A stretch of DNA of 29,114 nucleotides from the IMG/VR virus record IMGVR_UViG_2526164597_000011; one strand, written 5' to 3'. Below, one piece after another: positions 24,348 to 26,819 of the stretch. A model generated the notes under the pieces. That model searched no databases and was not told the origin of the DNA. It saw only the letters and a list, made by a program, of their open reading frames with translations. Position 1 is the stretch's first letter; the number at the start of each line of letters is the position of its first letter. Both the position numbers and the translations under genes were made by a program. This DNA is from a virus (taxonomy: Duplodnaviria > Heunggongvirae > Uroviricota > Caudoviricetes).

Positions 24348-26819
24348 ATGAGTAAAGTCTTTATTTGCGCCGCCATTCCGGACGAACAGGCAATAAAGGA
24401 AGAAGGTGCCGTCGCTGTAGCCACTGCCATTGAAGCCGGTGATGAACGTCGCGCCCGCGCAAAATTTCACTGGCAATTCCTGGAACATTATCCGGCTGCT
24501 CAGGACTGCGCTTATAAATTTCTTGTTTGCGAGGATAAACCCGGTATACCCCGCCCTGCCCTCGATTCCTGGGATGCTGAATATATGCAGGAAAACCGCT
24601 GGGATGAGGCGTCTGCTTCCTTTGTCCCGGTCGAGACTGAATCCGATCCGATGAACGTCACTTTTGACAACCTAGCCCCTGAAGTACAGAACGCTGTCAT
24701 GGTTAAGTTCGACACATGTGAAAACATCACTGTTGATATGGTGATTAGCGCACAGGAATTGTTGCAGGAAGACATGGCAACATTCGACGGCCATATCGTT
24801 GAAGCGTTGATGAAAATGCCAGAAGTTAACGCTATGTATCCGGAGCTTAAGCTGCATGCCATCGGGTGGGTTAAGCATAAATGTAAGCCTGGTGCCAAAT
24901 GGCCCGAAATTCAGGCAGAGATGCGCATCTGGAAAAAACGTCGCGAAGGTGAACGCAAGGAAGCCGGAAAATACACGTCTGTTGTTGATCTCGCCCGCGC
25001 CAGAGCCAATCAACAGCACACTGAAAATTCAACAGGAAAAATCAACCCGGTCATTGCTGCCATTCATCGCGAATACAAGCAGACATGGAAAACACTGGAT
25101 GACGAACTGGCCTACGCTCTCTGGCCTGGTGATGTGGATGCCGGAAACATTGACGGCAGCATCCATCGCTGGGCAAAAAATGAAGTTATCGACAACGACC
25201 GCGAAGACTGGAAGCGTATCTCGGCATCAATGCGCAAACAGCCTGATGCCCTTCGCTACGACCGCCAGACTATTTTTGGCCTTGTCCGTGAACGTCCGAT
25301 CGACATTCACAAAGACCCTGTGGCACTGAACAAATACATTACTGAATACCTGACTACAAAGGGCGTGTTTGAAGATGAAGGAACAAATCAGAGCGCAACT
25401 GATACTCTCTCGTCGCCAGTACCAGAAACTGATGCAGTGGAAACGGCAATTCCAGACAACGAAAAAACCGAATGCAAAGTGGAAGTCGAACCATCTGTAG
25501 AACGTGAGGGGCCGTTCTACTTCCTCTTCACCGACAAGGATGGCGAAAAATACGGTCGCGCAAATAAACTTTCTGGTCTGGATAAGGCGCTGTCTGCTGG
25601 GGCTACTGAAATCACGAAAGAAGAATATTTCGCCCGCAAAAACGGTACATACTCAGGTTCACAACAAAATACTGGTGCATCTGACACGACCGCACAACCA
25701 GGGTCAGTAAAAGTTACCGCTGACGAAGTAAACAAAATTATGCAGGCAGCCAATATCAGCCAGCCTGACGCCGATGAACTGCTTGCAGTATCACGTGGTG
25801 AATTTGTTGAAGGGATTAGCGACCCGAATGATCCGAAATGGATTAAGGGGATCCAGACCCGCGATTCTGTGAACCAGAACCAGCAAGAAACGGAACAGAA
25901 CGACCAGAAAGCGGAACAAAACAGCCCAAATACGCAACAAAACGAGCCAGAAACGAAACAACCTGAACCAGTAGTGCAACAGGAACCGGAAAAGATCTGC
26001 ACCGCCTGCGGTCAGAGCGGTGGCGGCAACTGCCCTGATTGTGGTGCGGTGATGGGTGACGCAACATACCAGGAAATATTCGATGGAGAGAATCAGCCTG
26101 AAGTTCAGAAAAATGATCTGGAGGAAATGGAAGGCTCTGCGCATCAGCACAAGGAGAACACTGGCAGCAATCAGCATCATGCCAGCGATAGTGAAACTGG
26201 CGAGGCGTCAGATCCCTTAATTAAGGTGAACGGTCATCATAATCTCACATCCACCAGCAGAGCGGGGATTCATCTGATGATCGACCTTGAAACCATGGGA
26301 AAAAATCCCGATGCCCCGATTATCTCAATAGGTGCAATATTTTTCGATCCGCAAACCGGAGATATGGGACCGGAATTTAGTAAGACTATCGATCTGGAAA
26401 CTGCTGGCGGAGTCATTGATCGGGACACCATTAAATGGTGGCTTAAACAATCACGCGAAGCGCAATCTGCCATTATGACCGATGAAATCCCGTTAGATGA
26501 TGCACTGTTACAATTGCGGGAATTTATCGACGAAAACTCCGGTGAATTTTTTGTTCATGTCTGGGGAAATGGAGCCAACTTCGACAACACGATTTTGCGC
26601 CGTTCATACGAACGGCAGGGGATCCCCTGCCCGTGGCGTTACTACAACGATCGCGATGTACGCACAATCGTTGAGCTGGGGAAAGCCATAGACTTCGATG
26701 CCAGAACGGCTATTCCATTCGAAGGTGAGCGCCATAATGCACTTGATGACGCCCGTTACCAGGCAAAATACGTTTCAGCTATCTGGCAAAAACTGATCCC
26801 GAGTCAGGCTGATTCTTAA
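24348..26819 (+). CDS. Large early-region protein: RecE-like N-terminal/central region, zinc ribbon, C-terminal DEDDh 3'-5' exonuclease domain
   Basis: 823 aa. C-terminal domain shows DEDDh motifs ([29 protein letters not shown]). Central [16 protein letters not shown] zinc ribbon is preceded by a Q/E/N-rich low-complexity linker. The central block resembles Rac RecE as remembered (unverified). Confidence 0.8.
   Translation: [823 protein letters not shown]

Follow-up and report, generated by a model that had tools for sequence, protein, structure and literature searches.

A prophage exonuclease that joins modules shared with RecE to a predicted DEDDh 3'-5' nuclease domain

What use does a prophage have for a protein that resembles RecE over part of its length, occupies the place where lambdoid phages carry exo/bet or recE/recT, and yet ends in a nuclease of predicted opposite polarity with no annealase beside it? 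The question is raised by a gene for an 823-aa protein in a 29,114-nt stretch of Caudoviricetes DNA (IMG/VR record IMGVR_UViG_2526164597_000011), hereafter called the window. The initial annotation of this DNA placed the open reading frame (ORF) at 24348-26819, pointed to DEDDh motifs, a zinc ribbon and a characteristic central block, and proposed that a RecE-like scaffold had been joined by a domain swap to a DnaQ-like 3'-5' exonuclease. The position and length proved exact, and the motifs, the ribbon and the block all lie where they had been placed. By sequence comparison the protein has modules that it shares with RecE, yet it is not a RecE.

The C-terminal ~180 residues are, as predicted from sequence and fold, a catalytically complete DEDDh 3'-5' exonuclease of the T4 DexA/Rv2179c family. 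Residues 642-813 match the Rv2179c-like family PF16473 at E 6.8e-67 and 225 bits, where the cutoff is 27, and cover positions 2-177 of the 177 in the model, while the PD-(D/E)xK family PF12684, which the RecE of phage Rac-SA53 matches at E 6.5e-13, finds no match in the 823-aa protein; the earlier assignment of the domain to the DEDDh rather than the PD-(D/E)xK enzymes therefore stands. The catalytic residues are D646 and E648 (within DLET, aa 646-649), D746, which is the Exo II aspartate and ends a 10-residue motif, and H796-x4-D801 (HNALDD); a second DLET, at aa 682-685, is not catalytic. All five DEDDh positions are near-invariant in a 61-sequence family alignment and map one-to-one onto the catalytic residues of T4 DexA. 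Among solved structures DexA is the sole strong relative by sequence profile (E 6.5e-20), the next being a DnaQ domain at E 0.004. DexA is also the top match in Foldseek (E 4.5e-11), followed by RNase T, a Cas2-DnaQ domain, Cap18 and Orn, and the Foldseek probability of 1.00 against DexA, RNase T, the DnaQ domain and Orn indicates the RNase H-like DEDD fold. The 3'-5' polarity of the nuclease is a prediction from these relationships.

The company that this domain keeps raises the possibility that it is an exoribonuclease trimming RNA 3' ends, for instance those of phage transcripts or of DicF during its maturation. PF16473 is named '3'-5' exoribonuclease Rv2179c-like', its founding member, Rv2179c, being described as a Mycobacterium exoribonuclease; RNase T, 3'hExo and Orn are structural neighbours of the domain, and the DicF RNA comes from the same operon as the 823-aa protein. 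However, the only significant solved relative by sequence is the DNA exonuclease DexA, and the profile search of solved structures with the nuclease domain returned no ribonuclease chain below 0.01. Standalone homologues lie among DNA recombination genes, and the scaffold is otherwise fused to DNA nucleases. Escherichia coli K-12, moreover, makes functional DicF, although its copy of the gene is truncated and has no nuclease domain. We consider this explanation very improbable, and among the functions suggested at the outset RNA turnover appears the least supported, the closest characterised relative being DexA.

Upstream of the nuclease, the relationship to RecE is partial. BLASTP against the 1,048-aa RecE of Rac-SA53 gives 59% identity across aa 439-624 (E 3e-64), a stretch that includes a 17-residue block (aa 482-498), a Q/E-rich spacer, the zinc ribbon and part of the acidic tail, together with a weak match at aa 262-336. 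At the DNA level, Rac recE and gene nt 1453-1868 share 83% identity, in what reads as a typical mosaic joint. Profile comparison with hhalign matched domain 2 to RecE with a probability of 100% (E 1.6e-45); domain 1 (aa 1-206) reached 12% against RecE N-termini of the PF06630 type, in a collinear alignment, and domain 3 found no match in the RecE middle region. A Pfam scan of the 823-aa protein likewise gave no match to PF06630 (Exonuc_VIII), and the NCBIfam RecE equivalog NF007259 scored 274 bits against a cutoff of 1269, with only aa 245-626 aligned, to model positions 270-603 of 877. On this evidence the RecE homology would be limited to domain 2 and the central zinc-ribbon module: there the resemblance first noted is real, but for domain 1 it is not demonstrable.

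AlphaFold2 (AF2) predictions show three confident globular units with disordered linkers between them in aa 1-470. In aa 430-823 they place short helices at the conserved central block, define the zinc ribbon only weakly, and show an acidic linker of ~70 residues as disordered ahead of the nuclease. The protein is thus modelled as beads on a string, with three small N-terminal domains and a zinc-ribbon module connected by disordered tethers to the DEDDh exonuclease. Substitution patterns agree independently with this domain parse: across 37 diverged 823-aa alleles the ratio of nonsynonymous to synonymous substitution rates (dN/dS) is 0.08-0.24 in the predicted folded parts vs 0.3-0.65 in the predicted linkers, and each folded module is under purifying selection. 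The zinc-ribbon cysteines are at least 95% conserved in both nuclease classes in a conservation map of 62 sequences. We also considered that the gene might be a pseudogene or an annotation artefact, and rejected this, as an ORF of at least 780 aa is present in 66 of the 79 loci with a callable motif-anchored ORF, the three Exo motifs are kept in all 66, and dN/dS is low. A homologue search with the N-terminal 440 aa, in which near-identical partial E. coli entries filled the matches listed, showed only that this part of the protein is already represented in Pfam by two newer families, PF27430 and PF27432. The N-terminal alignment holds no block conserved enough to serve as a query for scanning the genome collection; in such a scan the N-terminus of the window protein found matches in Escherichia and Shigella only.

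The fusion in the window is one of several. A search for domain combinations among 1.84 billion representative proteins recovered, besides the window-type combination of a YdfE-like N-terminus, central module and DEDDh domain, the RecE-type PF06630 N-terminus joined to a DEDDh domain (P0004, P0007, P0014, P0017 and phage vB_EcoS-689R5) and the YdfE-like N-terminus joined to a PD-(D/E)xK domain (P0022; L171 and L172 are further cases). P0022, for which the scan of the genome collection gave no relatives, shares 52-56% identity in its C-terminal half with RecE from Rac, Gifsy and HK225. The L172 protein is collinear with window aa 20-432 (E 3e-37; domains 1-3), does without the zinc-ribbon module and has a PD-(D/E)xK C-terminus; with the other combinations found, this indicates three parts that can be exchanged separately: N-terminal unit, zinc-ribbon module and nuclease. 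The same search returned YdfE-like N-termini without a recognisable nuclease and many standalone exonucleases of 180-250 aa, phage homologues among them, that are 42-57% identical to the C-terminal domain. One standalone copy, in phage 118970_sal3, adjoins int. Another, gene 29 of Salmonella phage g341c (L004 4995-5543; 182 aa, 56% identity, annotated 'endonuclease'), lies within a canonical Rec module, where it follows erf and ssb and precedes abc2, at the place of abc1 in P22, and its position amid erf-ssb-abc2 supports a role for the family in DNA metabolism. Finally, a 677-aa RecE-like protein in L117, L120 (6711-10480) and L134 consists of the PF06630 N-terminus, the middle region and the zinc-ribbon module, with no nuclease; these scaffold-only proteins are probably the 'RecE-2' proteins of Zheng et al. 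(2025). The domain swap first proposed is therefore right in that a RecE-type non-catalytic region carries a DEDDh nuclease, but it is not a one-off: the sequences point to a system of shuffled modules, in which N-termini are of two types, nucleases are of several, and one form has no nuclease at all, and the window protein is one of the combinations.

Do these forms differ in their partners? Through the shared central module we fetched 160 IMG/VR prophage loci, 80 with the window version and 80 with the Rac-SA53 RecE version, and assigned each to a class from its tblastn matches to a probe set that represented the two kinds of N-terminus, three kinds of nuclease and four annealases (lambda Bet, Erf, and RecT of both the K-12 and the SA53 type). 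The partner counts rest on the 150 of the 160 loci for which downstream sequence was available. The four probes found RecT, Bet or Erf within ~8 kb in none of 74 DEDDh loci (70 unique), whereas a cognate RecT accompanies the PD-(D/E)xK fusion in 73 of 73 loci. Separate lambda-type gam, bet and exo genes follow the scaffold-only protein in its three loci, and Gam matched nowhere else among the classified loci. In L171 and L172, where the YdfE-like N-terminus is joined to a PD-(D/E)xK domain, the next gene downstream belongs to the RecT family (Pfam E 1e-39 and 9e-30). Taken across fusion types, the counts indicate that the annealase goes with the nuclease domain and not with the scaffold.

The surrounding gene orders agree with this. 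Upstream of the fusion, dicB is present in 68 of the 74 DEDDh loci; phage 689R5 has the order dicB-ydfD-DEDDh fusion-xis-int, and phage 666R9 the order kil-ydaE-racC-recE-recT-ralR, then int. For 22 DEDDh loci with a window-type integrase downstream, the gap between nuclease and int is 347-448 nt (347 in 17 of them) and holds just xis. As this leaves no room for an annealase gene, one outside the reach of the four probes is not hidden there. The leftward operon of the window holds no annealase gene that we could find, and neither an annealase nor Gam is annotated in the complete 45.9-kb genome of Escherichia phage mEp460_ev081, to which the window is nearly identical. The earlier statements that xis and int follow directly and that no partner stands beside the gene thus hold in the operon, in the phage annotation and in the wider prophage search, where RecT, Bet and Erf probes found no single-strand annealing protein beside the 74 DEDDh fusions.

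A separate pattern is seen within RecE itself. The nucleases of the K-12 and Rac-SA53 subtypes are only ~29% identical (L088-L167, for example L153 vs L002), while the N-terminal and central parts of both stay highly similar, and each subtype is paired exclusively with its own RecT (269 vs 367 aa), in 46 of 46 K-12-type and 27 of 27 SA53-type loci.

These partner counts bear most directly on the idea that the protein is a true recombination exonuclease, an analogue of RecE that would work with host RecA and single-stranded DNA-binding protein or with an unrecognised annealase, making 5' overhangs or processing annealed intermediates. Its RecE/Exo position before xis and int, the domain 2 and zinc-ribbon module that it shares with RecE, the occurrence of scaffold-only proteins ahead of gam-bet-exo and the standalone homologue embedded in the g341c erf-ssb-abc2 module are all in keeping with such a role, and Zheng et al. 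(PMC12315714) accept some DnaQ-type nucleases as members of Rec modules. The same authors, however, do not count the int-proximal DnaQ-type genes among them, and a 3'-5' exonuclease would destroy the very 3' tails that annealases and RecA need. With 0 of 74 DEDDh loci positive for an annealase, no candidate gene in the 347-nt interval that separates the nuclease from int and contains xis, and none annotated in the whole of mEp460_ev081, we judge this role improbable.

If these phages have no annealase, how do they recombine? The distribution of Chi sites points to the host. The mEp460_ev081 genome has 9 Chi sites where 1.67 are expected, a number that none of 100 shuffled sequences reached. 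Chi density is 0.286/kb in DEDDh loci vs 0.027/kb, approximately the chance level, in RecE/RecT loci (Mann-Whitney p 9e-28), and 223 of the 231 sites in DEDDh loci are oriented one way. One Chi site lies within the exonuclease gene itself (Table 1), and the 1-kb bin that matches it, at ~8 kb in the loci, contains 68 Chi sites across 80 DEDDh-type loci (L008-L087). DEDDh-fusion prophages are thus members of the class with 'no Rec module, high Chi'. About one fifth of lambdoid phages have no recombination module and rely on RecBCD and Chi, and for phage LLS, the prototype of this class, RecBCD was found by experiment to aid growth (Zheng et al., 2025; PMC12315714). That study noted sporadic 'DnaQ-type nuclease genes ... 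very near int' as well as the nuclease-less 'RecE-2', and set both aside.

We therefore favour, with moderate confidence, the view that the protein is a lytic-cycle exonuclease of DNA 3' ends, directed by its scaffold to the target of RecE and working without an annealase, in phages that leave recombination to host RecBCD/RecA. The enzyme would be expressed from the leftward early operon of the phage and, in lytic growth, would remove nucleotides from free 3' ends of DNA; the non-catalytic modules in common with RecE would guide the attached nuclease, whichever it is, to RecE's target, probably DNA ends or a host factor. Unlike RecE with RecT, the DEDDh form would feed no annealase and would act alone, and recombination in these phages would fall to RecBCD/RecA at Chi. 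One possible role is the trimming of 3' tails so that RecBCD can load; this more specific version is attractive, but we think it unlikely to be the right one. Equally tentative is a broader proposal, that the non-catalytic region of the RecE family is a targeting module indifferent to the nuclease it carries, and that the DEDDh fusion is a second, annealase-free lambdoid 'recombination module' that prepares ends for RecBCD-Chi-RecA.

Several points weigh against a DNA 3'-end exonuclease of this kind. We found no functional study of the 823-aa protein in the literature, and no biochemical or genetic data. A promoter and terminator scan gave counts equal to the shuffled background and no signal that would define the timing of expression. 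A structure search with the N-terminal domains returned no informative structural neighbours, so targeting is inferred from gene fusion only. The loci behind the partner counts are related enterobacterial prophages that are not phylogenetically independent, and only four annealase probes were used, which would miss annealases of other families. RNA may yet be the substrate, given the exoribonuclease for which the Pfam family is named. Finally, the 3'-5' exonucleases of E. coli generally inhibit recombination (Zheng et al., PMC12315714), and a pro-recombination role is not obvious.

The kinship with DexA also invites a different explanation, that the protein is a prophage-borne nuclease of defence or superinfection exclusion, like the DexA homologue EcD ('HREX'), digesting the 5-hydroxymethylcytosine (5hmC) DNA of T-even phages. 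T4 DexA is the nearest solved relative of the nuclease domain, the same prophage carries the defence gene PD-T7-1, and dicB, whose product has been reported to block some phage infections, lies in the same operon. EcD, a standalone E. coli homologue of DexA, digests T4 DNA and protects cells, and so sets a precedent for a DexA-type exonuclease that blocks T4 (PMC12153337). However, EcD is not a fusion and starts at the Exo I motif, and its primer-derived ends (MIDTET... / ...TIPETYD) found no match in 150 representatives, nor did the 23-nt core of the reverse primer find an exact match in viral contigs. The DexA residues reported to read 5hmC, W152 and D169, align to Y766 and A780 of the window protein. 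Of 60 family sequences, 29 carry W and 13 carry Y at the first position; the second is most often alanine in the family and lies in a loosely aligned stretch, with D782 and D784 nearby. The gene is the last of a leftward operon that is repressed, and the promoter scan gave no signal above background; expression in a lysogen is therefore not expected. PADLOC returned a generic DEDDh match only (E 1.4e-5), and the shared RecE scaffold, together with the PD-(D/E)xK fusions, favours phage DNA metabolism over defence. We regard a defence function as improbable, and return to an exonuclease of phage DNA metabolism as the better account.

The genomic setting of the gene is summarised in Table 1. The order is cI-like repressor, ydfA-like gene, DicF, dicB, ydfD-like gene, exonuclease gene, xis and int, and the exonuclease gene is the last of the leftward DicF-dicB-ydfD operon, before xis and int. 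A Shine-Dalgarno sequence, GAGGT, lies 8 nt 5' of its ATG. The dicBF operon of the K-12 prophage Qin has the same layout (dicA/dicC, ydfA-C, DicF, dicB, ydfD, ydfE), and comparison with ydfE, which had been proposed from the start, identified it as the same gene in the same neighbourhood. The Qin ydfE, a pseudogene annotated 'exonuclease', matches gene nt 1-767 and is then cut by the insertion sequence IS2, with loss of all that lies beyond the end of domain 1, the nuclease domain included; the copy in the window is intact. From 16348, the left limit of the comparison, to ~28362 the window differs from mEp460_ev081 by two mismatches only, one of them in the gene, at 26227.

Table 1. Positions of the exonuclease gene, its predicted parts and its neighbours in the window
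Feature	Position	Strand	Evidence or remark
823-aa exonuclease gene, intact counterpart of the K-12 pseudogene ydfE	24348..26819	+	ORF call; PHROG 2082 end to end
Domain 1 (aa 1-206), 'YdfE-like' N-terminal type; alpha/beta plus helical	24348..24965	+	
Domain 2 (aa 245-342), helical; homologous to RecE residues ~276-369	25080..25373	+	AF2 predicted local distance difference test (pLDDT) ~86; hhalign 100%, E 1.6e-45; dN/dS 0.22
Domain 3 (aa 388-432), small beta-beta-alpha-beta-alpha	25509..25643	+	AF2 pLDDT 77-87; dN/dS 0.08; kept in the L172 PD-(D/E)xK fusion
Central RecE-like module (aa 458-580): conserved 29-residue block, variable Q/E-rich spacer, zinc ribbon	25719..26087	+	59% identity to Rac-SA53 RecE aa 431-614; conservation map, 62 sequences
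Cys4 zinc ribbon (C551, C554, C562, C565; CTACG...CPDCG, aa 551-566)	25998..26045	+	Sequence; AF2 confidence only 54-69
Acidic disordered linker (aa 581-639)	26088..26264	+	AF2 pLDDT <50; dN/dS 0.65
Chi site (GCTGGTGG) within the exonuclease gene, at the linker/nuclease boundary	26251..26258	-	Oriented like almost all other Chi sites in these prophages
Predicted DEDDh 3'-5' exonuclease domain (aa 640-819)	26265..26804	+	PF16473 E 6.8e-67; AF2 pLDDT 90-98; T4 DexA top by profile and Foldseek
DicF small RNA	23653..23704	+	Rfam RF00039, 76.7 bits vs gathering score 48, full-length model
dicB, cell-division inhibitor	23783..24067	+	Pfam DicB E 1.3e-36; coordinates from near-identical phage record
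ydfD-like gene (DUF1482), directly upstream of the exonuclease gene	24064..24255	+	Pfam DUF1482 E 7e-25; order as dicB-ydfD in K-12 Qin
Excisionase gene	26892..27143	+	Pfam DUF1233 putative excisionase, E 1.6e-31
Integrase gene, 3' end replaced by IS1 from ~28363	27163..28383	+	Pfam Arm-DNA-bind_2, Phage_integrase; comparison with intact phage copy, IS1 terminal repeat

At the far end of the operon the 3' end of int is interrupted by an IS1 element (28363-29114; terminal repeat GGTAATGCTGCCAACTTACTGAT, then the insA/insB ORFs), within which the window ends; it replaces the last ~25 int codons that are present in the intact mEp460_ev081. Near-identity to that phage, together with the IS1 end in place of these codons, indicates that the window is a chromosomal prophage copy, which may be unable to excise. 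The exonuclease gene occurs, over 80% or more of its length, in 3,534 of 5,426 complete E. coli genomes (~65%), prophages of enterohaemorrhagic strains included, with up to 10 copies per genome; E. coli copies number ~8,900 in all. Databases list the protein as 'exonuclease', '3'-5' exonuclease' or, at NCBI, '3'-5' exoribonuclease domain-containing protein', and as PHROG 2082; that K-12 carries only a dead ydfE fragment may explain why so common a gene has been neglected.

Elsewhere in the window, a 449-aa ORF at 18096-19445 (+) lies in DNA of low GC content (~0.35) and runs against the direction of the genes around it; Pfam gave no match, but the ORF matches the PADLOC entry PD-T7-1 over its full length (E 4e-157) and PD-T7-5 more weakly, and is a 'hypothetical protein' in the phage record. 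In the late/nin region of the prophage, Rfam identifies a sok antitoxin RNA of a hok/sok-type module at 17347-17521 (-), where the phage record annotates 'MokW', the small RNA STnc100 at 12845-13035 (-), two tRNA genes at 13735-13808 and 13912-13984 (-), and a cspA-type thermoregulator 5' untranslated region at 8554-8970 (-), upstream of a cold-shock gene. The region of this gene is adjoined by a second low-GC stretch at 7001-9000 (GC 0.36-0.38 vs ~0.5 on either side), which suggests another acquired 'moron' segment.

Databases have for years contained the protein, with its exonuclease annotation and its position, and DnaQ-type nucleases near int have been mentioned in print; the DEDDh fusion does not amount to a new kind of system, and the biological role proposed for it is inferred. 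What appear to be undescribed are the homology of its middle region to RecE, the shuffling of three modules, including the scaffold-only form beside gam-bet-exo, the strict rule by which nuclease type and annealase co-occur, and the tenfold difference in Chi density. The N-terminal region of RecE has been 'of unknown function' for decades, while full-length RecE underlies linear-linear recombineering (reviewed in PMC11611040). That modules of RecE occur fused to a nuclease of predicted opposite polarity, or unfused near gam-bet-exo, suggests an independent functional unit and supplies natural variants for its dissection; should the targeting proposal be true, it would give a handle on this long-unexplained region of ~600 residues. 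E. coli prophages with a dicB-type leftward operon have the DEDDh exonuclease as the sole enzyme of DNA metabolism in the place of a Rec module. The fusion therefore offers a testable lead on two questions, the role of the RecE N-terminus and the handling of DNA ends by Rec-less lambdoid phages.

Among known systems, T4 DexA, or exonuclease A (PDB 8KEL/8KEN), has the same DEDDh fold as the 823-aa protein and corresponds to it one-to-one in its catalytic residues, at an identity of only ~22-28%; DexA and EcD are standalone proteins of ~200-230 aa, to which the window protein adds ~640 N-terminal residues. Other Rv2179c-like PF16473 proteins, including standalone phage copies such as g341c gene 29, have the same domain, which in the window protein is joined to a scaffold of the RecE type and encoded in the early operon of a prophage. 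With the LLS-type phages of Zheng et al. (2025), the DEDDh-fusion prophages share the lack of annealase and Gam, the richness in Chi and a DnaQ-type nuclease beside int; unlike the present analysis, that study did not report a RecE-like fusion, the shuffling of modules or a link between nuclease, annealase and Chi. The closest parallel is Rac RecE, which likewise occupies a late slot of the leftward operon before xis and int and has domain 2, the central block and zinc ribbon, a beads-on-a-string layout and a C-terminal nuclease. Unlike Rac RecE, the 823-aa protein has neither the PD-(D/E)xK domain nor the PF06630 N-terminus, is predicted to degrade DNA with the opposite polarity, and is followed by no recT.

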